DNA from: a virus | Taxonomy: Duplodnaviria > Caudoviricetes | Direction: 5' to 3' (one strand) | Length of the DNA stretch: 64,000 bases | Virus record (IMG/VR): IMGVR_UViG_3300042691_031247 | Program-made: the position numbers and the translations under genes | Notes under the pieces: generated by a model | The model's input: the letters and a program-made list of their open reading frames with translations, nothing else | What the model was told of the DNA's origin: nothing | Databases searched by the model: none | In this document: positions 5,143 to 44,438 of the stretch, piece by piece | How positions within the stretch are numbered: position 1 is the first letter of the stretch | Layout: every line of letters starts with the position of its first letter

Positions 5143-5985
5143 CTAAAAAGTGCTTTGTGTGTATTGCTTGTCTAACATCGCTTGAATTTTTGCTGCGCGT
5201 TGGCTTACGGCGCCGGGCGTAATGTTTAATCGGCGAGCAATCTCTTGCGTGCTCGTTTTGCGCCGGCCGTTGCGCCCCAGCGTCATGTCAGCAACAAGCT
5301 TGTCGATCGGACTCAGATCTTCGTAGACAAACTTAAACCACGCGTCCGCCGCTCGCGTGCTGTTCGGAATTGTGCTCGCGACGTCGCCGCCGTAGCTTTC
5401 TTCGTCCATAACTTCGCGTGTTGTCATGCCTTCAGATACAGGCTGATTGAACGCACGAATCTTTTGAATACGGCGCGTAGACAACCCGGTGGCGTCCGCG
5501 ACTTCATCGTCGGTCGGCTCGCGGCCAAGCTGGTCACGCAGTTCGTTTTCGCTCTCGTTGAGTCGCGTGTAATCTAACCCTACTTGTTCCGGGATAGCGA
5601 TAATGTTTTGATTCTGGGCCGATACCCGCCGGAGACTCTGCAGCTGCGACAGAAGATGTGTGCGCACATTCCCGCGGTTGGGGTCGTACGTGTCGAGCGC
5701 TTTTAACGCCATAAGCTTGGCTCGCGACCGGATTGTCGGGCTGGCGGCTTGCCCGGCGTAACTCATCACCGCGGTGTCGATTACAGGCTGAAGTGTCTGC
5801 AGCAGCGCCGAGCTGGTCTCGGGGGTTTTGTGGGCGGCCCACTGCGGGTACAGACTGTCAAACTCCGGGCTGACGCCGGCTGGTTTTTTAGCTGAAAACG
5901 GTGGCGGGGTGTCGCCCAGTATGGACGGCATGCCTTGCTGCTTTTTGTTATTTATATCGGTCATTTCAGCGTATATCCCGACCAT
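5143..5985 (-). CDS. sigma70-family RNA polymerase sigma factor (regions 2-3-4)
   Basis: Region 2-like LQTLQPVIDTAVMSY...KALDTYDPNRGNVRTHL; region 3 LRDQLGREPTDDEVADATGLSTRRI; region 4 HTH STQEIARRLNITPGAVSQR. The start may be a downstream ATG. Confidence 0.8.
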   Translation of the reverse strand: MVGIYAEMTDINNKKQQGMPSILGDTPPPFSAKKPAGVSPEFDSLYPQWAAHKTPETSSALLQTLQPVIDTAVMSYAGQAASPTIRSRAKLMALKALDTYDPNRGNVRTHLLSQLQSLRRVSAQNQNIIAIPEQVGLDYTRLNESENELRDQLGREPTDDEVADATGLSTRRIQKIRAFNQPVSEGMTTREVMDEESYGGDVASTIPNSTRAADAWFKFVYEDLSPIDKLVADMTLGRNGRRKTSTQEIARRLNITPGAVSQRAAKIQAMLDKQYTQSTF

Positions 5986-8932: not shown

Positions 8933-11900
8933 CTATCTGTGGTAAGAACCGGTTCCGCCCGCCATGTCGACTGGCGTACCGTCTGGCGTCTGTTCCATGT
9001 GGCGCCCGCTGGCCTGCATTACGGCCTCTGACAGGCCCTTTAATACAAGTGTGCCGGTAAGCTGCATGTCTCTCCCGCGCTCGTTGTCTTGAACGCCGCG
9101 CTGGGCACGCAACGCTTGCTCGGCGTTTTGCTGCGCAACACTCGTCGCCTCGCGACCAGATGACACAAACGCTGCTTGTGTCTGCCGGATCGCTGTTACA
9201 CCGGTAGACGCGCCGCTAGCCCACGGCGGCTCGCCGCCAGCGCTTGGAGCGTCGCCGCCTATGCTCGCCATCGGATCAATTTGTTGCTGCGCCGGATCAA
9301 GCGTTTTGATTTCGTCGCGCCGCTGGCGCAAGAAATCGTATTGCTTTTTGTCGTCACTAGACAGTTGCAGTTCGCTTGTAAACCAACCGGACTTTCCGCG
9401 CGATGCAATCTCTTCCATCTGCTTGGTAACAGTTCCAAGCGGATCGCCTGATTCGAGTTCTTTGCGTCGCTGACTCAGCGCGTCATATTTTTTGCGGTCT
9501 TCTTTTCCTAGCTGCAGTTCGCTAGTAAACCAGCCAGACTTACCGCGAGACGCAATCTCTTCCATCTGCTTGGTAACAGTTCCAAGCGGATCGCCGGATG
9601 TAATCTCGTCTTTGCGGCGCTGCAACGACGTGTATTTTTCTTTGTCTTCGTCGGATAGCTGTATTTCGCTGGTGAACCACCCCGGTTTGCCGCGCGACGC
9701 AATATCCTCCATCTGCTGCGTAACAAGCTGCAGCTGCTCTTGCTGCGACGGTTGACCCTGCGCACCGCCGCCGCCAGATAGCAAATCCATCATCTGCTGC
9801 AGCCCGCTCGAATGCAGGGCTGCAGCTTGTTTAGGATCAAGATTTTGTGAAGTAAGTCCGCCGGCCGCGGGCGCTGGCGCGCCAGACTTTACGCGTTCCA
9901 TTACTTTGGTCGCTTGATGTTCGGCCAACGTTTTGTGCAGGCGCGAGACGTTCGCGCGCTCTTCTTTCGACAAGAACATGCTGGTGCGCGCGCCGTCCAG
10001 CCCGTCTAAGCCCTTTTGCTGATCTTCTGGCGAGAACTTATCAAATAGCTTGCGCGCTTCGCCGCCGGGGAGCGACAGCAGCTGCTTTCGCTTATCCGTG
10101 TCGTACATCGCCGACGTAAAGTTATCCGCGGTTGGATCTTTACTAATTTCGTCGACAACTTTTTGCTGCGCGTCTGTTAGTTTAGCGTCATCTGCGGCAG
10201 ACGGTGTTGCCAGCTCTTTCTTTCTTTTCTGGAGTTCTTCCCACCGCTGCTGGTCCTCGTCGTTGCTGAATCGCATGTCAGTAGCCATCCAGCCGCGGTC
10301 TGTACCGCGTTTGCGCAGCGCCTCAATTTGAGCGTCGACGCTAGCGGGGTCGTCCATGTTGGTCTGCTTGGAACGAAACGTTTCCAACCCCTGCTCTTTG
10401 GCCGTTTCACGTGCTTTTGCGTAAACGTTGTTAAGCTGCTGCACGCCACGGTCGCCAGAGCCAAATACTGCTTCCAAGTGTTTTTTGGCTTTCTCTTCGG
10501 CGCGGGCTGGGACCGAACCCTCGCTTTCAAAGTGCTTGATCATTTCTTCCTTCAAGCGCTTTGACATAAACTGCGCGCGATCTTCCGGTGTGTCGTCAAC
10601 TTGGTTACCCATTTCGTTGATTGCAACGCCGGCGGCGACATCGGCCGTTTTGCGCATAAGATCTTTACGTCGGGCGTCGAACTGTTCGGCAGTTACGTTT
10701 TCCGGTTTAAGCGCAGCATACGCACGCTTATCGTAATTTTGTTCGAGCTGGTCGAACGTCTGCTTGCTAACGTCACGCGTAACCTCGTTGGTCTTGGCTA
10801 ACGGTCGTTCTTGCGCCTCTGTGACTGTTTGCGCCGTTTGATTTAATCCGGCCGCAGCTAGCCCGCCGAACTCTTGCGACGCGCGTAATGCTTTTGACAT
10901 AGCGCGGGCTTCTTCTTGTTTTGCGTCACTGAGTTTGCCGCCGAAGAAACCGCCCTGCATTTTCTTTTCAAATGCCGTTGTATCTTTATCCAGCGCAGCT
11001 TGAGCGAAAGCATCGATTTGCTTCTGGTCAGCTTTCGGACCCAACACAGACTCGGCCATAGCGCGCGCGCCAGCCGTGACGTCTTCTTTTTTGCCGGTGT
11101 TATACGCTTTGATGACCGCTGTAGACCGCCGGCGTTGCGCTTCGTTTTGTTCTTTTTGCGCAGGCGTATCACCCGCAGCCGTGTTACCGACCGCCATTTG
11201 AGCGCGGGCGTAGAGCGTCTGCTGCTGCTCGGCAGTCAATTCTTCGTCCGGCTTGAACCCTGCCATTGTCTTTAGTTTTTTCGCTTCCGGGCCAGTCGGA
11301 TTTTTTTGCGCCTCTTCGTGCAGCTTTTGAATCTGCTCGGGTGTGATAGTAGCAGACGTATACATCTTGGCGGCTGCTACTAAACCTTCCTGCATGTCGG
11401 GCGCATACTTCTGCAGCATCTCGTCTTCCGACATGACGTTTAAGACGTGCTTTAATGATTCCGCGCGCGTACGCGTATTGTCCGACGAAATGTTATTTAA
11501 TTCGTCGCCGACCCGTTGCGAGAACGTAGACTCGGTTCCCAGCGCGGCCTTATTGAAACGCTCGGCGCGACGCTCGTCGACCTTTTGCTTCGCATCAGCG
11601 TTCGCGAGTGCGCCGCGATCGCGGATTTGCTTCTGCCCCTCAATATTAACGCCCGTGCGCTCTTGCAGGATCGCGCTGGATTCCGTGTAGAGTGCGCGCA
11701 TGTTTTCTTTGCGCGTTTCCGGGTCGGCGCCGTAAAGGGCGTTGAAGTATTTTTCAGCCCGGGCGTCGGCTGCGCGTTTGCCGAGATTACCACCGTCTTT
11801 ACTCTGGAAGTAATTCGACAGCTCTTCTTTGCCGCGCTTTTCGAGCGTCGCGTCAACCTCTTCGCTGCTCATGTCTTTCGTCTCGTTCATCACGACATCG

Positions 11901-13819
11901 AGCATGCGATTAGCGAGGTTAGGCGCAATCGTCTTTTTCTGTTCGGCAAACTCCTCGTCTGACATACCAGCCGGCTTAATCTTGTTGAAGTCTTCGCTGG
12001 CCATGGTGCCTTGCATAACCGCAGATTGGCGCTGCGCCAGCCGGCGCTGGTGCATGTAGGTTTGACCCTTGTAGGCATAGCCCTCCTGCACGAACGGCTG
12101 TAACCCCTGCCGATCCATCTGGTACGCGCGGAAGAGGCGGTCCGACGCGCCGGATTCTTTTGCGAGTTGGTACATAGAGCCTACGCCGCCCTCGCCAACC
12201 ATTTGCGCAAGATTAAATTTTTGTCCCTTATACTCGAACTCTTCTTGATTGTTTCGGTATGCCTGTACGGCGGCTTCCATTTTGGTGCCGCGGTACTTGT
12301 CCGGGTTTTCTGTCACGAGCCTATTCAGCACAGCAATACTCTGCCCGCCGGCGCTCGCATCACCGCGGCGAGAGAAGTTAGCCATCACTTCATCGGCTTC
12401 TGCTTTTTGGAGCTTACCCGGGAGCATCTTGTTATACGCCCCGGAGTCGTGCATTGCTTGGCTACGCAGCATGTTTGTGTGCGCGCGCTCCAAACCGCTT
12501 TCGCGCGAGAGGCCCATCTGCACGCCCATCTCCTGCTCGTCACGCACGATCTTGTTTAATTCGGTCAGGCTGGTGTTAGAGTCTCGGGCCGCCATGCGCA
12601 CTTGCCGCACCAGCTTTTCGAGTTTGCCCGGGGCTAGCGACGACGCGCCACCAGTTAAATGCTCAAGGCTTTTAATAAGCGCTTGAACCGGCGCGTTCTC
12701 TTGGCCATTGTCGCCAAAGATCTCGCGAATCGCGGCGATACTGCCCGTGTAGTCTTTAAGCGCTTTCGTGGTTCGCTGGGCGTCAACGGCGTTCGCGGCG
12801 GTGCTAAAACCGTCCATCTGCTCAATTTCAGAGACCGACTTGGCGCGCGGATCTTTGGCGGTGTGCCTGTCGATTTCTTGGAACGTCGAGCTGATGCGCT
12901 TCTTGTAGTCGCCCATCTTGTCGGCGAGCATGATCTTTTGTTCTTCTTCGGTGGCGTTCGCATAGTCGAAATTGCGCGACATTAAATCGTCATGCCCAAA
13001 CTGCTCGGCAAGTCGGGTGATTGTCTTGTCGTCGCGCTTCGACGCGCTCATGGCTTTAACGCGCTCTGCCGGCGTGAGCGCGCCCAGCGCTTGCGGCAGC
13101 TGCCCCTTCTGGAACAGGTGCTCCATCATTTCGCCGCTCGCTACGGCACCAAACCCGCGCATCTCGTTGAGGTTGGCGTCGGGGCCGTACATGTTTTGAT
13201 ATACATTCTGCGAAAACTGCCGCGTCGAGTTTTCGGACATCCGGCTGTCGCCTGTCGCGGCGTCGGCCCGGTAAAAGCCGATCCTGTTCGCGGCTGCGGC
13301 AGTAGCTGACGGGTCGCCGCGACGGCCGAACATAAGTCCTTCGTATGTTTCGGCGCCGATCTGGCTGGCGGCAAATTGTTTAAAAATTGGATTGTTTAAT
13401 ACGCGCGCCCCTGTGTTAGCCTGCTCGCGATCAAGCTGTGTGATTGGTTTGCCGCCGTTTGCGATCTGCTGCGCGGCTAGTATTTTTTTGGCGACCTCTT
13501 CGTTGCCGGCCATGTGCGCGGCGTTAATAACCTGCGCGCCACCGCGCTGATACTGCGCAGCCGTGTGTTGGTCCATCACGTTCTGGCCGGGCATCTGGTG
13601 CATTAAAAACGCATCTGGGCCGAAGGCGCCCTGCACCAGCTGCGGGCCGTACATGTTGGCCAGATAGCCAAACGCGTCGTCTACGTTTCTAGGATTCGTA
13701 AACGGCGAATAGGTCGGCGGGGCGTAGCGCAGAGCGTCTATAGACTGCGCCGCCGCCATGTCGTACTCGGACGGCGCGTTGCCAAAAAAGCCCGGATGAA
13801 TGTACTGCGAAGCCTGCAT
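8933..13819 (-). CDS. tape measure protein
   Basis: 1628 aa; Ala/Gln/Glu/Lys-rich helical composition; lies downstream of the chaperone pair and upstream of the tube initiator and hub. Confidence 0.7.
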   Translation of the reverse strand: MQASQYIHPGFFGNAPSEYDMAAAQSIDALRYAPPTYSPFTNPRNVDDAFGYLANMYGPQLVQGAFGPDAFLMHQMPGQNVMDQHTAAQYQRGGAQVINAAHMAGNEEVAKKILAAQQIANGGKPITQLDREQANTGARVLNNPIFKQFAASQIGAETYEGLMFGRRGDPSATAAAANRIGFYRADAATGDSRMSENSTRQFSQNVYQNMYGPDANLNEMRGFGAVASGEMMEHLFQKGQLPQALGALTPAERVKAMSASKRDDKTITRLAEQFGHDDLMSRNFDYANATEEEQKIMLADKMGDYKKRISSTFQEIDRHTAKDPRAKSVSEIEQMDGFSTAANAVDAQRTTKALKDYTGSIAAIREIFGDNGQENAPVQALIKSLEHLTGGASSLAPGKLEKLVRQVRMAARDSNTSLTELNKIVRDEQEMGVQMGLSRESGLERAHTNMLRSQAMHDSGAYNKMLPGKLQKAEADEVMANFSRRGDASAGGQSIAVLNRLVTENPDKYRGTKMEAAVQAYRNNQEEFEYKGQKFNLAQMVGEGGVGSMYQLAKESGASDRLFRAYQMDRQGLQPFVQEGYAYKGQTYMHQRRLAQRQSAVMQGTMASEDFNKIKPAGMSDEEFAEQKKTIAPNLANRMLDVVMNETKDMSSEEVDATLEKRGKEELSNYFQSKDGGNLGKRAADARAEKYFNALYGADPETRKENMRALYTESSAILQERTGVNIEGQKQIRDRGALANADAKQKVDERRAERFNKAALGTESTFSQRVGDELNNISSDNTRTRAESLKHVLNVMSEDEMLQKYAPDMQEGLVAAAKMYTSATITPEQIQKLHEEAQKNPTGPEAKKLKTMAGFKPDEELTAEQQQTLYARAQMAVGNTAAGDTPAQKEQNEAQRRRSTAVIKAYNTGKKEDVTAGARAMAESVLGPKADQKQIDAFAQAALDKDTTAFEKKMQGGFFGGKLSDAKQEEARAMSKALRASQEFGGLAAAGLNQTAQTVTEAQERPLAKTNEVTRDVSKQTFDQLEQNYDKRAYAALKPENVTAEQFDARRKDLMRKTADVAAGVAINEMGNQVDDTPEDRAQFMSKRLKEEMIKHFESEGSVPARAEEKAKKHLEAVFGSGDRGVQQLNNVYAKARETAKEQGLETFRSKQTNMDDPASVDAQIEALRKRGTDRGWMATDMRFSNDEDQQRWEELQKRKKELATPSAADDAKLTDAQQKVVDEISKDPTADNFTSAMYDTDKRKQLLSLPGGEARKLFDKFSPEDQQKGLDGLDGARTSMFLSKEERANVSRLHKTLAEHQATKVMERVKSGAPAPAAGGLTSQNLDPKQAAALHSSGLQQMMDLLSGGGGAQGQPSQQEQLQLVTQQMEDIASRGKPGWFTSEIQLSDEDKEKYTSLQRRKDEITSGDPLGTVTKQMEEIASRGKSGWFTSELQLGKEDRKKYDALSQRRKELESGDPLGTVTKQMEEIASRGKSGWFTSELQLSSDDKKQYDFLRQRRDEIKTLDPAQQQIDPMASIGGDAPSAGGEPPWASGASTGVTAIRQTQAAFVSSGREATSVAQQNAEQALRAQRGVQDNERGRDMQLTGTLVLKGLSEAVMQASGRHMEQTPDGTPVDMAGGTGSYHR
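9310..9720 (-). repeat. three tandem 147-bp (49-aa) coding repeats in the tape measure C-terminus
   Basis: Anchor GCAAT(C/A) at 9405, 9552 and 9699 (period 147); unit QMEEIASRGKSGWFTSELQL...RRKELESGDPLGTVTK. Confidence 0.9.
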
Positions 13820-34711: not shown

Positions 34712-37093
34712 TTACGCGTTAGCGATGGCGCCAAGATCAATATCCTGCGCGGCTTCTTCGGGATACGGCTCGATGGTCTTTTGCTTGAGGAACAGAATGA
34801 CGTCGCCAAGCATTTCAAATGCGTTGCGCAGCGAGTCTTCCAGTTCCGGCATGTCGGCTTTACCGTAACGTTCGGCAAACCGGTCACCGTGCCAGTAGAA
34901 CATGAACAGGATGCGGCCCAACTTGTCGAGGCCCTTGGTTAGTTCGCCCATGTACCGGTCGACGAGCGAGTCGTCGCGCACGGCGCGCAGCATGGCGCCC
35001 ACCATCGCGGTGTCGAACACTTCGCGCTGGCCGCTTTGCGCGGCGTCGATCACGGAGCGCACGTCCCGCTGGTCGAGGAGCGTGTTCGGGTTGTAAACGC
35101 TGCGGTCGGTTTGACTGGCACTCATACCCGGTACTTGCACCGCGGTATCAATGCCGAGCTGCGTTGGGATACTTGTACCCATGATACTCTCACCGCCCAT
35201 CACGGGGCCCGGATCGGTCGGAGCGGAGGGTGCGCCGTTGATCATCATCGGGCCGCCGTACGGATCAGCATACTTAACGCGGCACTCAAACTTGCGCTTG
35301 GCGGCCGCTTGTTTCAGGATCTCGCGAGCAGCTTGCTCGCGCAGACCGTGGTGCTCCACCAGCGTAACGAGCGCCTTGATGGGGCTCAGGTTAGCCTCTT
35401 TGTTAATCGTTACCGACGAGCCGTTGTGATAAACAGTCAGAGCAGCGGTCTTTTGCATGAGCGCCAACTGGGCGTCAACAAGGTTGCCGGGCATCAGGGC
35501 CGGCGGATCACTCTCACCACAACCACATGCGCCCTGATCTTCCGCGATCTCGTCATCATCTTCGCCTTTGCTCACCTTGAGCAGCTTGAAACCTTCCGGC
35601 ACAAAGATGTCGCCCATGCTCGCGCGCAGGCTGGCACCTTTCTTACCGTTGAGGTGAATACGGACACCGTCGCGCCACTTGTCGTAGTTCAGCGGGTCGG
35701 TATAGCAGCTGCCGCAAATGCTGCCCTTGGGCGGATACTTCGAGTGATCCTCAAGGTGCACTTCATAAACAGTGCTGCCGTTGCTGTCGCCGTATTCTTT
35801 GATCACGCGGAACGGCGCTGTTGTGTCGCCGCGCTTGCTGAGCGCAATGTAGCGGGCGTCTTTACTCGGGACGCTGTTGGCTTCCGGCAGGCCGTTAAAC
35901 CACGTATCAAACTCTTCGCCCTCGATCCGGGCCAGCGCAAAGACTTGGTCGGCGCGTGTATTGAGCCAGTTGCGCGCACCGTCAACGCGCACGACCGTGA
36001 TGAAGTTTTCACGCTTAGCGGCGCCTTGCGGATGTACAGCCACGTAGCAGCGCTCAATGTTGCCCGGCTTGACCAAAATTTCATACAAACCGCTTTCGGT
36101 CGGATTGAACAGCTTCTTTTCGACCTGAATGTGATACGGGATCGAGACGTTGTCGCGGTCACGCTCGTCTTGAATCAGCACGCCGTCGCGCAGCAGCTTT
36201 TCTTGATCGTCTTCGCTGTAACCAACGGGCGCCTTGGTCTGCACCGTGACGTCGTATGTGATAATTGTCAGGCCCTTAGCGGCGGCCGGCTCTTTGGGAG
36301 CCTCAGACAGCACACTGGCAATCTTTGTGTTTGCGGCAACTTCGCGCGCAGAGGCTTCAGCAATAGCCTGCTTGACGATATCTAAACCGTGAAACTCGTC
36401 GACGGCGGCGGCTAGTTGCGGCGCGTGTTTGCACGTGTTAATAAGCGTGCCAATCACTTCGCGCCCGGCCTGCTTCAAAAACGTCTGCAGGTCTAGCGCT
36501 TCGCCCATCTCCTTAAACGCCTGCGCTGTGTTTAACGTAGCGCTCTTGGCGAGAGCCGGCATCGCAGCCGTCATCATCTCTTTGAGTGTGGGCTGCGCAG
36601 AGCCAAACTTAGCCGGGCTGCGCGAAAGCTGCGTAAAGTCGGGCTGACGTTGGCCCATGCCCGACAGGTTGCGCTGTACGCCGCTACCCAGAATGTTGGG
36701 CTTGCGGTTGATCAGGTAGTTAATCCAGTTTTCCTTAAGCGGTACGAACATGTCCTGATTTTTGATATACAGGAGTTCGTGGCCTTTGAGGTCGCCGTTG
36801 AGGAAGAACACCGGCGCATACAGCCAGTTAGAGCCGACCTTGAACGCAAAAACACCAACCGCCTTGGTGTTTTCCCGGTTGCGGTCGAGCAGCTGGAAAC
36901 CAATTTCGTGGTCGAGTAGCTTGGGCGCTGAATCGCGCAGGTAGGCGTGAGCCAGATTGCTGAACGACTGCTCGAAGGAGGTGTCGTCGCCTTTACCGCC
37001 TAAATCGGCGTACTTGGTCTGGGTGCGGTCATACGACTGCATCACCTTCAGCCAATGCTTAACAGACGACTCTTTCGCTTTTTTGTTATACAC
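34712..37093 (-). CDS. large hypothetical head-region protein
   Basis: Start reassigned to GTG at 37093 (CATGGAGG SD); ~793 aa; multiple K-x-A motifs; no family recognised. Confidence 0.7.
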   Translation of the reverse strand: MYNKKAKESSVKHWLKVMQSYDRTQTKYADLGGKGDDTSFEQSFSNLAHAYLRDSAPKLLDHEIGFQLLDRNRENTKAVGVFAFKVGSNWLYAPVFFLNGDLKGHELLYIKNQDMFVPLKENWINYLINRKPNILGSGVQRNLSGMGQRQPDFTQLSRSPAKFGSAQPTLKEMMTAAMPALAKSATLNTAQAFKEMGEALDLQTFLKQAGREVIGTLINTCKHAPQLAAAVDEFHGLDIVKQAIAEASAREVAANTKIASVLSEAPKEPAAAKGLTIITYDVTVQTKAPVGYSEDDQEKLLRDGVLIQDERDRDNVSIPYHIQVEKKLFNPTESGLYEILVKPGNIERCYVAVHPQGAAKRENFITVVRVDGARNWLNTRADQVFALARIEGEEFDTWFNGLPEANSVPSKDARYIALSKRGDTTAPFRVIKEYGDSNGSTVYEVHLEDHSKYPPKGSICGSCYTDPLNYDKWRDGVRIHLNGKKGASLRASMGDIFVPEGFKLLKVSKGEDDDEIAEDQGACGCGESDPPALMPGNLVDAQLALMQKTAALTVYHNGSSVTINKEANLSPIKALVTLVEHHGLREQAAREILKQAAAKRKFECRVKYADPYGGPMMINGAPSAPTDPGPVMGGESIMGTSIPTQLGIDTAVQVPGMSASQTDRSVYNPNTLLDQRDVRSVIDAAQSGQREVFDTAMVGAMLRAVRDDSLVDRYMGELTKGLDKLGRILFMFYWHGDRFAERYGKADMPELEDSLRNAFEMLGDVILFLKQKTIEPYPEEAAQDIDLGAIANA

Positions 37094-37174
37094 GGCCAGC
37101 CTCCATGCTGCGCTCAAAATTAGACACAGTATTAATTTACTGCGTCGAAGTCTCTATATCCTACAAAAACAGGC

Positions 37175-39055
37175 TCACGGCTTCCACCCGCTTGTTGTGC
37201 CTGTTACGCCGAACTGCTCGCCTTGGGCTAGAGCGGGCACATAACTGCTGCCCGCGGTATCGCTACTTAGGCCGCGTTGCACGCTATTCATAAGCCCTTT
37301 TTCTTGATACGAGCCCAGCATGCGGGTCATCCAGTCGGGGTCATTTGAGATATTCGCCATACCTCGCACCATTTCGGGCTGGAACGGCGGTGGTTCTTTG
37401 TGGGCTTGAATTGTCTTCACGCCGTATTTATTCAAATTGGTCAGCACGTTTTTACCGATCTTTGTGCCAATTGAATAGTGCAATACCGGTTTTTCAAGGT
37501 AATGCCCGGTTAATGTGTTAGGCGCGGCTGATACGCTACCTTCACGCGGCGTCCAATTACGTTCAATTGCTGAGTAGGGCACTACATCGTCTGGCGCATA
37601 ATCGCCGTACTCGTCATTCAAACGCACGTGATTAACAAGACCGCGCGCAAGTAGCTCGATGTTCCGTCGGTGGGCTGTAATGCCGCTATTGCCCATGACC
37701 TGCCGCATCGCCTGCACAAAGTAACGGCGGCCTTCTCCTACCCCTTTGTGCCGGACAATTTCAGCTGGATTTGGCATACCGTCGGATATGACGTCGCCGG
37801 CTTCAAGCTCGTCGCCTTTTTTAACAGCAAGCTTTCGCTCGGTCGGAACGTAGTGATCCTGCCCGTTAATCTGCACGTAATAACCGCCCTGCGGCGCTGG
37901 CCGAACTTCTTGTACTCGCCCGTCAAGCTGCGAATGCGCTGCGCCGTCTGGATATTTTTTCGGGACCTGTACCAGCGCGTTAAGCGCTTTAAAGCCAGAA
38001 ATCGCGCCCGCGCCACCAACGCCGCCCGAGTGCTTCGAGCTGATCTGGCTTTGCGTAACCGGCTCGGACAGCGCCTGTGCGGCGGTAATGCCTACGTAAT
38101 CGCCGATGGGCGGTAGGCGCCCCTTCTCCCGGTAACCAACGTCTTTGGCGTAAACGCCGCCATCGCCCGGGCCGCCGACAATCGGACTGCGGACTAAGAT
38201 ATCTTTAGCGCCGCTTTCTTTCAGGTCTCGCAAGATCTTGGGCGTCAGAATTGTATTGCGTTTATACGGCCCGACAGCGCGAGCGAGTAACGCACCTTCG
38301 TTGTCTGGATCGTCTACGTCGGTGGGGTAGCCGCGCTCTTCCGCGGTCATGCGCCGCTCTTCATCGTCGTTATCATCGTCATCTGCCGTAACGAGCAGTC
38401 GGTGCGTCATCTGCGCAAGCTGTTTACCGTAGAACCCCGCGTCGGCGGTGGCCGTCTTCAGATCGATAACGCCCTTGCGGGTACCGAACGCGCCGGCAAA
38501 GTATTCAACCGGGCGCAAACCTTGGCTGTAGCCGCGCAACACCGGAATTGGAATCGGGTCGCCGCGGTGGTCGAGATACTGCATGTCAGCGCCAAGAATC
38601 GAGTTTAACTGAAACTTGTTACCGACGCCGGCGCCAGCAATTTGATGCACCAGCGGATTATCTTGACCTTCCGCTTCTTTGTACACTTTTTCGAGAAGTT
38701 CTTGCTGCGCTGCTTGCGCAAGTTCGAGGAGCTTGATGTTGCGCTGTTTTTCGTCAAGCCGGCGATCGGCAAAGATGTCGCGCATCTGATTTTGCACACG
38801 CAGTTGCACGTGACGTGCCGCAAGCGTCGGGCGAATGTCTTTAAGCCCGAACGATAAGCCGTTTGTCGTATACCCGGCGTCGCGGCCGATGTCGTGAAGC
38901 CGCTTCATGACTTCGCGGTATTTTTCTGGATGCGTTTTGGCTAGCTCAGTCGCGACACCGGACATTGTCTTTTTCGTCAACACACGATCGTAGTCGCGCA
39001 TCTCGGGCGGCAACGCTTCGTTAATCAGGAGTTGGCCGAGCGTTGTCTTCAGCAT
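37175..39055 (-). CDS. rpoC: RNA polymerase beta' subunit, C-terminal half (bridge helix, trigger loop)
   Basis: KTTLGQLLINEALP; GYSQGLRPVEYFAGAFGTRKGVIDLKTATADAGFYGKQL (bridge helix); GITAAQALSEPVTQSQISSKHSGGV (trigger loop); these align by eye with bacterial RpoC. Confidence 0.9.
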   Translation of the reverse strand: MLKTTLGQLLINEALPPEMRDYDRVLTKKTMSGVATELAKTHPEKYREVMKRLHDIGRDAGYTTNGLSFGLKDIRPTLAARHVQLRVQNQMRDIFADRRLDEKQRNIKLLELAQAAQQELLEKVYKEAEGQDNPLVHQIAGAGVGNKFQLNSILGADMQYLDHRGDPIPIPVLRGYSQGLRPVEYFAGAFGTRKGVIDLKTATADAGFYGKQLAQMTHRLLVTADDDDNDDEERRMTAEERGYPTDVDDPDNEGALLARAVGPYKRNTILTPKILRDLKESGAKDILVRSPIVGGPGDGGVYAKDVGYREKGRLPPIGDYVGITAAQALSEPVTQSQISSKHSGGVGGAGAISGFKALNALVQVPKKYPDGAAHSQLDGRVQEVRPAPQGGYYVQINGQDHYVPTERKLAVKKGDELEAGDVISDGMPNPAEIVRHKGVGEGRRYFVQAMRQVMGNSGITAHRRNIELLARGLVNHVRLNDEYGDYAPDDVVPYSAIERNWTPREGSVSAAPNTLTGHYLEKPVLHYSIGTKIGKNVLTNLNKYGVKTIQAHKEPPPFQPEMVRGMANISNDPDWMTRMLGSYQEKGLMNSVQRGLSSDTAGSSYVPALAQGEQFGVTGTTSGWKP

Positions 39056-39056
39056 G

Positions 39057-39305
39057 TCACGGCGTCCAGACGATGTTTTGCAACGATTTCGGCTTGAAGT
39101 CGGTTACAACAACTGTTTTATTGATACCCAGCGCGCGTAACATTGGATGAAAATCTTTTTCACCCACGGTTGAATAAACAACCGCCTCGTCGACTTGAAT
39201 GGCGACGAATAGCGGGTTACCTAGATCGTCCTCGACAACGACGCTGTGCGATTTCTGCTCAGCGGGTTGAAGATTGTGCTGCGTTTTAACCAGCATTGTC
39301 CGCAA
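39057..39305 (-). CDS. hypothetical protein between the RNAP genes
   Basis: 82-aa ORF coupled to both neighbours. Confidence 0.6.
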   Translation of the reverse strand: MRTMLVKTQHNLQPAEQKSHSVVVEDDLGNPLFVAIQVDEAVVYSTVGEKDFHPMLRALGINKTVVVTDFKPKSLQNIVWTP

Positions 39306-40014
39306 TACTCCGAATCATGGCGGCGATAGCATTTGCTTTGATCTGCATTGCCGTGGGCGCATTCGGATTCGAGTAGCTGGGGCCGAACGGCCGGCCGATT
39401 GACGACGCAGACTTTTCAGCGCGGTCCCACCACGCCGCCTTAGACGGATCACCCTCTGGCGGTGCGGCGTTCGGCGGCATCGGGCCGCCCGGGGGCATCG
39501 GACCACCCGGCGGTTGCATACCGGCCTGCGCGTTGGGATCTTGCGCGGGAGGCGCCATCGGGCCGCCGGGCAGCGCGGTTTCAGCCGGCGGGGCGCCGGT
39601 TGTTCCGGGCGGGAGCACAAGTGACTCTGGCGGAACTTGCACACCCATCGCGTTCATAATGGCCGTGAGCTGCTGCTGCATGTTGTACAAGCGATAGTCG
39701 AGCATCTGCATCATCTGCTCGGGCTTTAGTTTTTGCTGCGTGCCTGCAGGGGCTGCGCCCGGAGCGGCGGGTGCGGCGGGCGCTGCGGGAGGAGCAGCGG
39801 GCGGCGCCATACCCATAGCCGCAGGATCCACTGGCGGTGCAGCTGCTGCAGCAACAGCAGACGGATCGGCCGGCGGTACAGCCCCCATGGCGGCTGGGTC
39901 AACCGGCGGAGCACCACCAGCAGCAGCGGGATCCACCGCCGCTCCGGGCACTAATGCGGATTTTTCAAAGCGCGCCTTCGCCAGCGCAATGAGTTCGGGG
40001 TTTACCGTGAACAT
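39286..40014 (-). CDS. Pro/Ala-rich low-complexity protein between the RNAP genes
   Basis: 242 aa; CATGGAGG SD; PPVDPAA repeats around a short helical core (QMMQMLDYRLYNMQQQLTAIM). Confidence 0.7.
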   Translation of the reverse strand: MFTVNPELIALAKARFEKSALVPGAAVDPAAAGGAPPVDPAAMGAVPPADPSAVAAAAAPPVDPAAMGMAPPAAPPAAPAAPAAPGAAPAGTQQKLKPEQMMQMLDYRLYNMQQQLTAIMNAMGVQVPPESLVLPPGTTGAPPAETALPGGPMAPPAQDPNAQAGMQPPGGPMPPGGPMPPNAAPPEGDPSKAAWWDRAEKSASSIGRPFGPSYSNPNAPTAMQIKANAIAAMIRSIADNAG

Positions 40015-40034
40015 ACAGCCTCCATGTTTAACGA

Positions 40035-43000
40035 TTACGTATTATCTTCCACAATATGAACCGGGGTGTCCACCTCTATTTCGCCGCGCCGGTACGCCTG
40101 CATGGCATCCTGCTTGCTGCGAAACACGCGTGGTTTAGCTTTTTTACTGATTCGACTGGACGCTAAGTATAACCCAGTCTGGTAGTCTTTGTTTGGGACG
40201 TAGTGCGCCTTGAACGTCGAAGCTGCAAACAGGTTCTTACTCGGCAGCATCTTTTCCACGGCTTCTTTAGCGGCGTCTTCGGTACTTGGGACGTGATACT
40301 GCATCGCGTCGCCGTCGAAGTCAGCGCCGAACCCCTTCGTGATTACGGGGTTTACTTCCATGACTTTGTTCTTAGTTAACTTGGGGTAAAACGCCATCAT
40401 GCCGTAACGGTGAAGCACGGGCGCGCGGTTAATAACAATAGGCCGCGACGACATCTGCCGATCTAGCTCGGCGCCAGCTTCTTTCGTCTTGTCTTCCACG
40501 GCCTGCATCGCCTGCATGCGCGGAAGACCCCTGCGAACAAGACCGCGCACAACGAACGGCTTGTAAATATCCCACGCTTTCTCTTCCGGCAACGCAACCT
40601 CGTCCATGTCGAGATCGGGATTCGGTGTAATGACCGCGCGCCCCACGAGGTCGACCGTGGAGCTAAGAAGCTTACGCTGCACGGTGCCGTACTTTGGCGA
40701 GTTACCGAACACGTGCCGCAGAAAACCTTTCACATTGCGCTCAACGTTTTTCGGCTGCTGCGGCTCACCCAGTCCAGTGACAGCCTTCATCGAGTCATAC
40801 ACGCTCAGGCGTTCGTCGCCGTAATCGGCCAGCGCGCCAGACGCCTCTTTCAGTGTGTCGTTCGCATCAAGCAGTTCTTTGTACAGATAGTTTGCGTCAG
40901 CGACGAGCGGCAGCTTCTTACTGCCCATCGTGCTCACGGGGCGGAAGAGTGGCGGCAAGACGGGGACTTTACTAATCATCCAGTCTTTGGGGTGCACGCC
41001 GGTTGTTTCCGCGCTCTTTAAGAACCCCAACCGGCGCACGGCAGCGTCGCGAAGCGTCTTGCGCCCGGATTTAATATCTAAACGCGCCTGCTCGATAGCC
41101 TTTGGTAGGTTAATTCGTTCAAGCGCGGCCTTGATCGCCGTGGGCCCTGTTTTGTCGCCCAGCTGTTCGCGACCAGCCAGCACGCCGCGGAACTGCTTTT
41201 CCGTCATCCCCAGTACGCGTCGAATCGGGTCTTCCATGACCGGATTCGGCAGCGGCTCGTGCAGCGTGATCTTGCTCCACCTGTTACCGCCGTGGCCGCC
41301 CGTCAAAGCCTCATCAAATAAACCGCCGGCAATAGGCTTGAGGCGCCCCTTCCAGTCAACGGTCTCAGAGCTTTTCAATTCACGCGGACCGGCCAGCTCG
41401 TCGATGTCTTTGTCGGTCATGGCCATGAGGTTCGACCGCGTGCCTTTGCGCACAACGTTAATACCAGACGCCCTAAGCTGCCCGACGAACTTCTCGTATA
41501 CGTGTGGCACCTTGGGTAGCGGCGGAGTGTAGCCGGCCATGAACTGCGACCAGTATTCGGGATTTGCTTGGCCGCGCACCATCTTGGCGTCGCGAATAAC
41601 CTTACCGGCGCCGTGCGAAAGCAGCGCGCCAAGATCCAGCATGCCGACGCGCTTGGCGCCTTCGCTGCCGCCCTTCGCCGGAGTGCCTTCGGCTGTATAT
41701 GCACCCATCGACCGGCCCTGCGCTTTTGATTCGCTGGTATGGTGCAGCTTCATGAAAAACCGGCTGCCGGTCAGCACACCGCCGATTTTCCGCCCGGTTT
41801 CTGCGTCGATGACGTCTTCGGTATCGGACAGCCCGTGCTTTGCCAGTTCTTTCTGCGCAAACTCAATGAGGTCGTTTTTGTTATCAAAGTCCTTGAGCTT
41901 GTACGGCGAGCCGGTCTTTGCTGCGACCTTGCCTAGTGCGGCTTCAATCACCTGCGCCGGGTTAATACGGCTGATCAGACCCAGCGGCGAGACGAGCACT
42001 TCAAAAGGATTGCCGTCGCGGTCTTTGGGCATCTGGTCGTCAGGTACGATCTCTGCGACGACGCCCTTGTCGCCAAAGCGCCCGGTGAGCTTGTCGCCAA
42101 CGTCCATGGGCGCTTGGTTTTTAACGACAACGCTCACACCCTTCTTGGTGTGCATAACGTCGGTCACGATACCCGGCGCATGATGCTCCCACGTGATTGT
42201 GTCGTTTGTAAAGTTACCAGCACGCCCACGATGCACTTTGCCGTACACCGTGTCTTTCTTTTTGGCCACGAGCACGAGCGGGTCACCAAACTTGACCTCA
42301 GTACCTTTTTTAATCGCGCCGTCGTCGTCAAAGTTGTCAAGATACTTTTTGTCGTACTCAGTCGGGAACAAACTCACGAACGCCTTCTTGCCAACGTGAG
42401 TGTTGTCGTCCCACTCGGCTTCGTGCTGATACATGTGCTCAGACGTTAGCCGCTTGGATGCGGATTCAGAGATAACTACCGCATCTTCGTAGTTCTTGCC
42501 GCGGAACGGCAGATAGGCTGTACGCAGATTCAAGCCGAGCGCTGCGCTGCCGTTTTGATCTGTAAAGTTCGACCGGGCGAGCAGTTGTCCGGGCTCTACC
42601 GTGTCGCCGGGCTTCACAATCGGCGTCTGGTGTAAGAACGTCTTACGGTTGTACGGCATTTCGTTATACAAATCGATCGTCTTCTTATTACCATCTTTGT
42701 CGCGCAGTACGATGCCGTCAGGTGTGACATCGACGACTTGCGCGCGTTCGGTAGCCCGGGTGGCGCCAAGCTTTTCGCCCATCTCGTCTTCGTGCGACAT
42801 GCTCTCGTCATCGGCCTTGGCGGATTGCAGCAACGGCGCCTCGGCGTTTACTAGCGGGAGCGCTTGCGTAAACATACGGCTACCCATGATCACGCGGTGG
42901 CCTTTGATCATGGACTTAATCGGCACCATGTTGGATAACGTCGAAAACGTTGAATCCATGTTCGGCAGGCTGAACTGCGCCTCTTTACGCGGAACATACT

Positions 43001-44438
43001 TGAGCTTGCCGTTGACGAGCGCTGCCACCACGGGAAGTCCGTTATCTTCTTCGCCGGGAAACACGAGCGGCGTATCGGCCAGCTCTTGCGGCGTCTTGTA
43101 CACCTTATCGCCGGTTTTCATATCAACAACCGGCGTATACACCTTGCCGTCGGAGCCCTTCATAGCGCCGCGGGCAAAGCGCATGTCAACACCCACCTTG
43201 CCGGATTCTGGCGTGCGAAGATAGTCGATAAACCCAAGGTGGCTGGGCTGCACAGAACGTGACTCGGCAGGCACGGCGTCCAGCGAGCCAATGCCGCCTT
43301 CGCCCATACGGGTCACACGCGTCTGGTGGTCAAAGATCTCCGCAGGATTAATTTCTTCTAAACTCGACCCCAGACCGCTGCCAATAAGCGCAGCTGAGAT
43401 TGCCTTGTCGAATACGCCCGACGGAATGTGATCAATTGACTTCTTCGCCGTAGCTTTCCAGAGCAGCTTGTTAAGCGATTGGCGGTCTTTGGTAAAACGC
43501 TCGGCAATGAGGTCCTCCGGGCCGACGACGGACTGATACACCATGTTGTCTCGGTCGTCGCTCTCGGCCTCGCGGCGATTCACTGCGATTAATTTCTTAG
43601 TGATCGCCAGAATCGTCTCCGGCGTCATGTTCTTGTATTCAGAACCCAGTGTGCGCCGGGTGACTTCCGGGTCGAGTTCGGTCTTGGCAAACTCGGCCGC
43701 GATCGCCTGCGCTTTGGCAATAGCGTCTGCGCCGGCAACTGGTTTGTTTACAAGGCGGGCGTAGATCTTGTCCATCGTGCCAGCATCGCCCTTCTCCATG
43801 TTGACGGCGGTGATCTCATTGCCCCACGCTTTGCGGATGTCCTGATCTGACACGCCCATGGACTTGAGCAGCGGCATGAGCGGGATCTGCGCCTGACCAA
43901 TGCTGATTTTGAACACGCCGGTTTTGGGGTCGAGGAAGTACCGGTGCGAACGGCCCTTACCCGGTAGCGTGTTTACGTGCGCCTCAATCTCGCCGTTGTC
44001 TTTCTCGCGGGTAAACACGCCGGGGCGCAACCGCATCTGGTGCGCAAGGGTGTACTCGACGCCGCCGTTAACGAACGTGCCCGAGTCGGTGAGATACGGC
44101 ACGTGGGCGATCGTGGCGCGGCGCTGGCCGACAGGCTGCCCGGTTTTGTTATCTGTAAGCGTCCACGTACCTTGCAGCCGGCGGGCAAGTGTCCCTCTGG
44201 AAAGGACAGCTTTCTTCTGATCTGACCTTGTGAAGCGCTCAGGTCCCGAATACCCGACGTCTTGCAGCTGCAACGTATACAGGTCATTCTGCAGCGGCTT
44301 GAGCCCCTGCGCGCTCGTAAGCGCCTGATTAAAAATGTTATCCCGCATCACGCCAACGTCGCCGAACGTGCGCATCGTGGGCGCGACCGGCGCGGGTGTC
44401 ATCGGCGATTTTAAGTCGGGCAGTTCAGGGGTCGGCAT
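40035..44438 (-). CDS. rpoBC: RNA polymerase beta subunit fused to the N-terminal (catalytic) half of beta'
   Basis: Beta motifs VPYLTDSGTFV, TPESGKVG, GKNYEDAVVIS, GDKLTGRFGDKGVV, FMKLHH; then beta' motifs DWMISKVPVLPPLFRP, VDLVGRAVI, NRAPVLHR and catalytic GADFDGDAM. Confidence 0.93.
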   Translation of the reverse strand: MPTPELPDLKSPMTPAPVAPTMRTFGDVGVMRDNIFNQALTSAQGLKPLQNDLYTLQLQDVGYSGPERFTRSDQKKAVLSRGTLARRLQGTWTLTDNKTGQPVGQRRATIAHVPYLTDSGTFVNGGVEYTLAHQMRLRPGVFTREKDNGEIEAHVNTLPGKGRSHRYFLDPKTGVFKISIGQAQIPLMPLLKSMGVSDQDIRKAWGNEITAVNMEKGDAGTMDKIYARLVNKPVAGADAIAKAQAIAAEFAKTELDPEVTRRTLGSEYKNMTPETILAITKKLIAVNRREAESDDRDNMVYQSVVGPEDLIAERFTKDRQSLNKLLWKATAKKSIDHIPSGVFDKAISAALIGSGLGSSLEEINPAEIFDHQTRVTRMGEGGIGSLDAVPAESRSVQPSHLGFIDYLRTPESGKVGVDMRFARGAMKGSDGKVYTPVVDMKTGDKVYKTPQELADTPLVFPGEEDNGLPVVAALVNGKLKYVPRKEAQFSLPNMDSTFSTLSNMVPIKSMIKGHRVIMGSRMFTQALPLVNAEAPLLQSAKADDESMSHEDEMGEKLGATRATERAQVVDVTPDGIVLRDKDGNKKTIDLYNEMPYNRKTFLHQTPIVKPGDTVEPGQLLARSNFTDQNGSAALGLNLRTAYLPFRGKNYEDAVVISESASKRLTSEHMYQHEAEWDDNTHVGKKAFVSLFPTEYDKKYLDNFDDDGAIKKGTEVKFGDPLVLVAKKKDTVYGKVHRGRAGNFTNDTITWEHHAPGIVTDVMHTKKGVSVVVKNQAPMDVGDKLTGRFGDKGVVAEIVPDDQMPKDRDGNPFEVLVSPLGLISRINPAQVIEAALGKVAAKTGSPYKLKDFDNKNDLIEFAQKELAKHGLSDTEDVIDAETGRKIGGVLTGSRFFMKLHHTSESKAQGRSMGAYTAEGTPAKGGSEGAKRVGMLDLGALLSHGAGKVIRDAKMVRGQANPEYWSQFMAGYTPPLPKVPHVYEKFVGQLRASGINVVRKGTRSNLMAMTDKDIDELAGPRELKSSETVDWKGRLKPIAGGLFDEALTGGHGGNRWSKITLHEPLPNPVMEDPIRRVLGMTEKQFRGVLAGREQLGDKTGPTAIKAALERINLPKAIEQARLDIKSGRKTLRDAAVRRLGFLKSAETTGVHPKDWMISKVPVLPPLFRPVSTMGSKKLPLVADANYLYKELLDANDTLKEASGALADYGDERLSVYDSMKAVTGLGEPQQPKNVERNVKGFLRHVFGNSPKYGTVQRKLLSSTVDLVGRAVITPNPDLDMDEVALPEEKAWDIYKPFVVRGLVRRGLPRMQAMQAVEDKTKEAGAELDRQMSSRPIVINRAPVLHRYGMMAFYPKLTKNKVMEVNPVITKGFGADFDGDAMQYHVPSTEDAAKEAVEKMLPSKNLFAASTFKAHYVPNKDYQTGLYLASSRISKKAKPRVFRSKQDAMQAYRRGEIEVDTPVHIVEDNT

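Follow-up and report, generated by a model that had tools for sequence, protein, structure and literature searches.

A predicted two-chain, cysteine-free RNA polymerase of bacterial type, without the ligands of either canonical zinc site, in an uncultured tailed phage

The stretch of DNA considered here (the window, 64,000 nucleotides in length) is part of IMG/VR virus record IMGVR_UViG_3300042691_031247, the 198,101-bp, 97% complete genome of an uncultured tailed phage (Caudoviricetes), in which the minus strand carries nearly all genes. It contains two genes for the large chains of a multisubunit RNA polymerase (RNAP) of bacterial type (Table 1): a fusion of beta to the N-terminal part of beta' (beta::beta'N), and a separate gene for the remainder of beta' (beta'C). 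The fusion chain consists of a complete beta, up to about residue 1000, linked with only a short linker to beta', which extends from about residue 1003 to the approximate equivalent of E. coli beta' residue 551; it contains Pfam domains Rpb2 2, 3, and 6 and Rpb1 1 and 2 (172 bits for RNA_pol_Rpb2_6, cut-off 23.4, and 88 bits for RNA_pol_Rpb1_2), and a phmmer search of the PDB matches it to bacterial beta (E = 2e-68) and beta' (E = 1e-47). The beta'C chain contains the bridge helix, a remnant of the second zinc site, an insertion-free trigger loop, and the C-terminal module; it matches Pfam domain Rpb1 5 (RNA_pol_Rpb1_5, 85 bits) and PDB entries (phmmer, E = 5e-35), and its AlphaFold2 model (predicted local distance difference test, pLDDT, 85.2) is matched by Foldseek to beta' of Thermus thermophilus (TM score 0.73 over approximately 660 columns), with helices at residues 182-217 and 321-343, the regions examined for the bridge helix and trigger loop. 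For both chains, the top sequence matches in the PDB are bacterial beta and beta', and the phiKZ and AR9 phage enzymes do not appear among them. The fused open reading frame (ORF) is also present in 60 relatives, and the 97%-complete genome holds only one beta homologue. The first-pass annotation had treated positions 37990-41340 as a single RpoC; this interval actually spans the C-terminal third of the fusion, a 242-aa (amino acid) ORF, a 79-aa ORF, and the first 355 residues of beta'C.

Alignment with MAFFT to E. coli RpoB and RpoC (NC_000913.3) and to the closest cultured homologues, those of Salmonella phage Arash (OQ632216.1) and Vibrio phages D69, D148, and D181 (approximately 30-32% identity), bears out the earlier proposal that both zinc sites of beta' have been lost. 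The N-terminal zinc-binding domain is cleanly deleted: E. coli beta' residues 67-99, which include the ligands C70, C72, C85, and C88, fall in a clean 33-residue gap flanked by GGLFDEALTGG-HGGNRWSKITL (fusion residues 1038-1059). A His/Asp metal site in the replacing loop was considered and rejected: H1050 is common, not invariant, H1061 varies, and there is no conserved set of three or four ligands. At the second site, the four Cys of E. coli are replaced by D227, G294, Y302, and D305 of beta'C, and all 150 best representatives of the 50%-identity clusters (46-57% identity) are likewise Cys-less there; among these representatives, Y302 is found in 128 of 139 and D305 in 139 of 139, position 294 is Gly or Ser, and only the position of C814 drifts. 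The most distant members fetched (41-42% identity, from phages of 135-144 kb) have the same Cys-less pattern, whereas Arash and D69 possess all four second-site Cys, which are the sole Cys of their beta'C chains. Because the site is Cys-less across all of the sampled clade and intact in Arash and D69, it appears to have been lost once, deep in the clade, with a conserved, apparently non-metal arrangement of Tyr, Asp, and Gly in its place. The loss of the first site is predicted to have been older, because the gap and its loop are common to 60 of 60 relatives, Arash, and D69.

The two chains contain no Cys among 2,093 residues, versus a frequency of 1.36% in the phage proteome, by which approximately 28 would be expected (probability by chance approximately 3e-13). 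Because neither chain has any Cys, no realignment can restore the ligands elsewhere, an outcome for which the first-pass annotation had allowed. The exteins of the relatives are also Cys-free, their Cys being confined to inteins. Inteins with LAGLIDADG and Hint domains are found inside the polymerase genes of many relatives (L013, L016, L023, L050, L051, L064, and L071, with ORFs of 1019-2205 aa; P0052, P0055, and P0097). Other large proteins of the phage are Cys-free as well (1628 aa, window positions 8933-13819, minus strand; 710 aa, genome positions 94414-96546; 846 aa, genome positions 118059-120599), as are a sigma factor, a 284-aa ORF, and several neighbours of the polymerase genes; the Cys-free proteins may be a set of proteins that the phage delivers.

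The active site is altered at several positions, and the substitutions previously noted there stand in the alignment: GADFDGD for NADFDGD, QSQISSKH for QLTMRTFH, and GRFGDKG for GRHGNKG, the last located outside the interval first annotated, in the same fusion gene. The Asp triad (D460, D462, and D464 of E. coli; D1373, D1375, and D1377 here) is found in 60 of 60 fusion relatives, all of which also keep beta' R425 and beta K1065, K1073 (K783 and K791 here), R678, R1106, H1237, and D814; the position of beta E813 is Glu in 49 and Asp in 11. In the trigger loop (Q335, I338, and H342 here), the representatives have Q929 in 138 of 139, H936 in 128 of 139, Lys at position 935 in 133 of 140, Ser or Gly at position 933, and a hydrophobic residue in place of M932; T790 of the bridge helix is kept in beta'C. 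We infer that the enzyme is catalytically competent, since it has the Asp triad, the acidic pair for the second magnesium ion, the beta Lys and Arg residues that hold the nucleoside triphosphate (NTP) and the 3' end of the RNA, the Gln and His of the trigger loop, and the bridge helix. The direct, universally conserved substrate contacts seen by cryo-electron microscopy are beta R678, K1073, and R1106 and beta' H936, together with stacking by M932 (PMC13198411). All residues in direct contact with NTP or magnesium are present here.

The substitutions are peripheral. N458, a residue reported to be conserved universally and to contact the ribose (PMC7862312), is Gly here; among the 60 relatives this position is Gly in 47, Asn in 12, and Ala in 1, scattered over the identity classes. 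R731, a contact of the leaving pyrophosphate (PMC13198411), is Val here; Arg is found in the deeper branches, and Val, Arg, Lys, His, Thr, Ser, or Gly within the clade of 70-100% identity. In beta, position 1070 is Phe or Tyr in 59 of 60 relatives and position 1072 is Asp in 57 of 60. The first-pass annotation suggested that changes of this kind might alter substrate or template specificity. Such an alteration seems unlikely, because R425, which is kept, is the major sugar discriminator, and the N458S substitution costs E. coli RNAP less than 5-fold in selectivity (Mäkinen et al., PMC7862312). The variability of position 458 looks like relaxed constraint and not like a new specificity; modest differences in kinetics or fidelity are possible. 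Altered initiation or termination, as also suggested, is plausible from the sequence, because the missing zinc-binding domain is located where the RNA leaves the enzyme and by the upstream DNA, and host factors dock on it.

Table 1. Features of the polymerase locus and of the sigma factor gene, in window positions.
Feature	Position	Strand	Description	Basis
beta::beta'N fusion gene	40035..44438	minus	1467 aa, 0 Cys	Pfam, phmmer versus PDB, MAFFT
beta active-site motif	42063..42098	minus	GDKLTGRFGDKG; GRHGNKG to GRFGDKG; K1065 and K1073 kept; H1070 to F, N1072 to D	
beta/beta' junction	41403..41471	minus	beta C-terminus ASGINV runs straight into beta' start MAMTDKDI (E. coli ALASPDMI)	MAFFT alignments
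Scar of deleted N-terminal zinc-binding domain	41262..41327	minus	loop TGGHGGNRW in place of E. coli beta' 67-99	MAFFT
beta' catalytic motif	40308..40328	minus	GADFDGD (E. coli NADFDGD), residues 1371-1377; Asp triad intact, N458 to G	MAFFT
Pro/Ala-rich ORF	39286..40014	minus	242 aa, 0 Cys; between the two polymerase genes	
Small ORF	39057..39296	minus	79 aa; directly upstream of beta'C	
beta'C gene	37175..39055	minus	626 aa, 0 Cys; approximately E. coli beta' 569 to end	Pfam, phmmer, AlphaFold2/Foldseek
Motif AGAGVGNK	38615..38638	minus	E. coli beta' R731 to V	alignment
Former second zinc site	38135..38392	minus	C814, C888, C895, C898 to D227, G294, Y302, D305 of the 626-aa chain; stretches VTADDDD (38372-38392) and VRSPIVGGPGDGGVYAKDVG (38135-38194)	MAFFT
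Trigger loop	38021..38068	minus	SEPVTQSQISSKHSGG; QLTMRTFH to QSQISSKH; Q929 and H936 kept; M932 to I, R933 to S, F935 to K	
ORF just downstream of beta'C	34712..37117	minus	801 aa; same position in nearly all relatives	
Sigma-70-family factor	5143..5985	minus	280 aa, 0 Cys; inside baseplate operon	Pfam, PHROG

Both polymerase genes are under purifying selection, with ratios of nonsynonymous to synonymous substitution (dN/dS) of 0.02-0.11 in comparisons with six relatives; synonymous differences are 58-75%, near saturation. Homologues of the 626-aa chain number 1377 at E <=1e-5 among 90% clusters, many of them on contigs of approximately 200 kb, and 1087 at E <1e-30 among 50% clusters. With selection of this strength and the catalytic residues conserved, decay into pseudogenes is rejected; the degeneration that the first-pass annotation had kept in view is not seen in this very large conserved family. 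DNA nearly identical to positions 37175-44438 is found in sequencing runs of 15 studies, of which two possibly represent the source sample and the remaining 13 (2021-2025) carry, with few exceptions, the labels freshwater, lake, or river; no RNA dataset is among the public runs listed with near-identical DNA. One beta'C protein of 93% identity (P0025) is filed in NCBI under a metagenome-assembled genome of Betaproteobacteria.

The polymerase shares its layout with those of Arash and the Vibrio phages, which also have a beta::beta'N fusion (1525-1527 aa) and a separate beta'C (606-609 aa; gp206 and gp216 in Arash), a zinc-binding domain cleanly deleted at the same position with a GG-x-GG-type loop, a replaced N458 (Ala in theirs), Lys at position 935, no R933, almost no Cys outside the second zinc site, and a sigma factor gene in a structural operon (Arash gp10 within gp4-gp17). 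They differ in keeping the four second-site Cys, in their beta motif (GLHGNKG versus GRFGDKG here), and in having other genes between the two chains, the small ORFs located there in Arash and D69 not being recognisably homologous to the 79-aa ORF. By its sequence, then, the polymerase is a member of an Arash-like family of phage polymerases, as a variant free of zinc sites and of Cys.

Compared with the bacterial core enzyme (E. coli RpoB and RpoC, as in PDB 4YLP, and complexes of T. thermophilus), the phage enzyme has the same domain order, fold, clamp helices, and probably type of partner (sigma-70), and the same catalytic set (the Asp triad; beta K1065, K1073, R678, R1106, and H1237; E813/D814; R425, Q929, H936, and the bridge helix), but lacks the zinc-binding domain, the Cys4 second site, any Cys, and lineage-specific insertions of the SI3 type. 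It further differs in that beta is joined to beta', that beta' is split near E. coli positions 551/569, that N458G, R731V, and R933S are substituted, and that no gene for alpha or omega accompanies it. Fused and split subunits both occur in cells: Helicobacter and Wolbachia have natural beta-beta' fusions, in which the beta C-terminus is joined to the beta' N-terminus by a short linker, and cyanobacteria and plastids encode beta' in two genes, divided downstream of the catalytic motif. As far as is known, those cellular enzymes retain the two zinc sites and work with alpha2 and omega, and no cellular enzyme is known to combine a beta-beta' fusion with a split beta'.

The RNAPs of jumbo phages such as phiKZ and AR9 are likewise phage-encoded two-barrel enzymes without alpha or omega (PMC7598289), with beta' split after the catalytic barrel, and they exist in a virion-packaged form. 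They differ from the enzyme described here in being far more diverged from bacterial RNAP and in having a split beta, two paralogous sets (virion and non-virion), and specificity subunits that are not of the sigma-70 type (gp68 and gp226), whereas the present genome has one set, a whole fused beta, and a sigma-70-family factor. The N-terminal Cys4 zinc-binding domain has been called a feature otherwise shared by all multisubunit RNAPs; the non-virion enzyme of AR9 also lacks it, whereas phiKZ retains it (PMC7618050). Loss of this domain thus has one precedent, in AR9, and loss of alpha and omega is known from the jumbo-phage enzymes (PMC7618050, PMC7598289). In the literature, no paper was found on loss of the second site, on total absence of Cys, or on a fusion-plus-split layout with a sigma-70 partner.

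Bacterial-like beta and beta' that are sister to those of Bacteria have been described from uncultured tailed phages (Caudovirales) in metagenomes as the mReC group (Weinheimer and Aylward 2020, PMC7481178), in a study that required the motif NADxDGD and makes no mention of zinc, splitting, or fusion in those phages (PMC7481178). The phage considered here does not pass that screen, having GADFDGD, and its genome has no match to the mReC marker families PF07068 (Gp23-type capsid) and PF03237 (terminase), a weak negative for PF07068, of which the control matched nowhere. By motif, capsid, and terminase, membership of mReC is not supported.

Searches of the 198-kb genome for alpha and omega (PF01000, PF01193, and PF01192) found neither, with controls positive in 14 of 14 genomes. 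The candidate specificity subunit is a sigma-70-family factor (Sigma70_r3, 39.9 bits, cut-off 25.3, with a weak match to region 4; PHROG 351, E = 4e-12) that is 28% identical to gp10 of Arash and likely serves the phage polymerase. A bipartite motif, GCTAAAT-N16-GG(C/T)ATAT(C/T)TA(-N-TGA), is found 10-60 nucleotides upstream of about nine ORFs (genome positions approximately 99849, 100769, 102533, 104784, 105160, 105935, 112982, 147392, and 11879, on the minus strand and all outside the window). Most of these sites are in an early-looking region of small genes, often right after a GC hairpin and a run of seven T, and the motif is not host-like, its upstream element being unlike TTGACA; it may represent the promoter class of the phage sigma factor. 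Outside this genome, none was found in the 90 loci scanned. Signals of host type are not enriched at 30-50 kb, where there are 2 sigma-70 promoters versus 7.6 expected and 23 intrinsic terminators versus 29.3 expected. The polymerase genes themselves sit in a block of late or structural genes on a single strand.

The order of genes around the polymerase (284-aa ORF, fusion, 242-aa ORF, 79-aa ORF, beta'C, 801-aa ORF) is kept throughout the clade of 70-100% identity. The 242-aa ORF, of which the ends are conserved and the low-complexity middle is variable, has a homologue at the equivalent site in almost every relative of at least 70% identity and in some at 50-60%. What appeared to be a gap of 230 nucleotides before beta'C is the conserved 79-aa gene, which shares 11 nucleotides with the end of the 242-aa ORF and has its stop codon 1 nucleotide before the ATG of beta'C; its protein is conserved immediately before beta'C, including in distant relatives whose fusion gene is 3-6 kb away. 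In an AlphaFold2 model (pLDDT 86.7), the 79-aa protein folds into five strands and a helix, for which Foldseek gives no match in the PDB at E <=0.001; the predicted fold is beta-rich and so not omega-like. Prediction of a complex with beta'C, both entered as alignments, scored 0.00, which speaks neither for nor against binding; the protein could represent a previously undescribed small subunit or a factor for assembly. The 801-aa ORF, which found no usable match in an ESM Atlas look-up, is weakly similar to VPHD69_0266 of Vibrio phage D69, located at the equivalent position two genes after the D69 beta'C, and none of the 242-aa, 79-aa, and 801-aa ORFs has a match above threshold in Pfam and PHROG scans. 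Many of the 50%-identity clusters have a C-terminal extension of 400-1100 aa on beta'C (P0207, 1774 aa; P0137, 1684 aa; P0124; others), some with NUDIX and SNF2 helicase domains, which echo the helicase gene adjoining Arash gp216, some with DUF4269/DUF5661, and others without a recognised family. These extensions do not correspond to the 801-aa ORF, with which they have no BLAST match.

Taken together, these observations are somewhat more probably than otherwise explained if the genes encode the phage's own and sole multisubunit RNAP, an enzyme of bacterial ancestry made of two chains, free of zinc and thiols, and packaged with its sigma factor. Its ancestors would have lost their dependence on metal and thiols stepwise, the zinc-binding domain going first, in common with Arash and the Vibrio phages, and the Cys4 second site in a single later event, at the root of a very large clade of freshwater and environmental phages, where the Tyr/Asp/Gly arrangement would have taken its place; every remaining Cys would have been lost too. 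The enzyme would be made late, would most likely work with the phage's own sigma-70-type factor, and would be packed with it into the particle. Freedom from zinc and thiols would permit survival outside cells, with no thiols to be oxidised and no supply of zinc required, and the enzyme, delivered with the DNA, would initiate transcription of the phage without reliance on the host polymerase. Carriage of the polymerase in the virus particle is probable by analogy with Arash, for which spectral counts from purified particles place gp206 first and gp216 fifth and also reveal the sigma factor gp10 (PMC10585845).

Several points weigh against this reading. Packaging is extrapolated from Arash across an identity of approximately 32%, and the authors of that study caution that abundant enzymes may co-purify, the 116 proteins detected including ribonucleotide reductase (PMC10585845). 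Structural proteins of the phage are not all poor in Cys (there are 7 in a sheath-like protein of 1078 aa and 15 in a protein of 961 aa), so Cys loss is not a general virion trait. That the enzyme contains no zinc is read from the loss of canonical ligands only, and alpha and omega of the host could be borrowed. The bipartite motif can be assigned specifically to neither the phage nor the host enzyme, and a strict scan of viral contigs gave 24 single matches, of which two are in close relatives and the rest are uninformative. For the phage and its clade themselves, the reading depends on sequences.

A functional polymerase that is not packaged, but made after infection to take over middle or late transcription from the host enzyme in the manner of a non-virion polymerase, would account for some of the same facts: its genes lie in a late-looking structural block, so that newly made enzyme would appear late; the Arash mass spectrometry may include abundant co-purifying proteins, as its authors allow; and sigma-70-like promoters and terminators are not enriched near the genes. 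Absence of zinc and Cys could then have another cause, such as freedom from the zinc supply of the host, protection against oxidative or thiol-directed defences of the host, or simple streamlining. We regard this as rather unlikely, since the polymerase is the only one in the genome and, made late and left unpackaged, could not serve early genes; moreover, the promoter-like motif that is not of host type precedes small ORFs in the early-looking region, both chains and the sigma factor are among the most abundant particle proteins of Arash, and the sigma gene here is embedded in the baseplate operon.

The other alternatives concern catalysis. Substitutions of N458 and R731, of trigger-loop residues, and of beta H1070 and N1072 might have retuned the active site for relaxed discrimination between ribonucleotides and deoxyribonucleotides, lower fidelity, or use of modified DNA, and the roles described for N458 and R731 lend this some force, as do the loss of R933, the presence of Lys at position 935 in nearly the whole family, and the fixation of H1070F/Y and N1072D in the clade. 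Against this, R425 and Q929 are invariant or nearly so, the effect of N458S in E. coli is small, all direct NTP contacts are kept, and positions 458 (Gly, Asn, or Ala) and 731 vary freely among close relatives, which fits relaxed constraint; retuning is accordingly improbable. Far less credible still is that the polymerase is decaying and no longer catalytic, a relic retained in some structural or regulatory capacity. Such a relic would explain the loss of both zinc sites and of N458 and R933, which have been described as universally conserved, but not dN/dS values as low as those of both genes, a catalytic set invariant in 60 of 60 relatives, more than 1000 homologous clusters of the same architecture, or a confident fold model.

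If the preferred reading of a packaged, zinc- and thiol-free phage RNAP is extended to its limit, the polymerase would be a self-sufficient machine of three proteins (beta::beta'N, beta'C, and sigma), without alpha, omega, zinc, or Cys, packed in the virion and injected for host-independent transcription. This extension is possible, although we hold it with considerable doubt; if it is true, an enzyme of bacterial type can dispense with both zinc sites and with the alpha/omega platform for assembly, which multisubunit RNAPs have long been held to need almost universally. The second zinc site is reportedly tied to the assembly of E. coli beta' (Markov et al. 1999), and its natural replacement by Tyr, Asp, and Gly would be a test of the role of that site, for which the Arash-type relatives that keep it offer a built-in comparison. 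The enzyme is a candidate minimal polymerase, predicted to be insensitive to redox conditions, free of metal clusters, and composed of two chains, which would suit it to structural work and biotechnology. Screens based on NADxDGD miss this group of phages, and total absence of Cys might serve to mark proteins that phages package and deliver. A clearly bacterial-type polymerase without either canonical zinc site and without any Cys appears to have been stable over hundreds of diverged lineages with a wide freshwater distribution.

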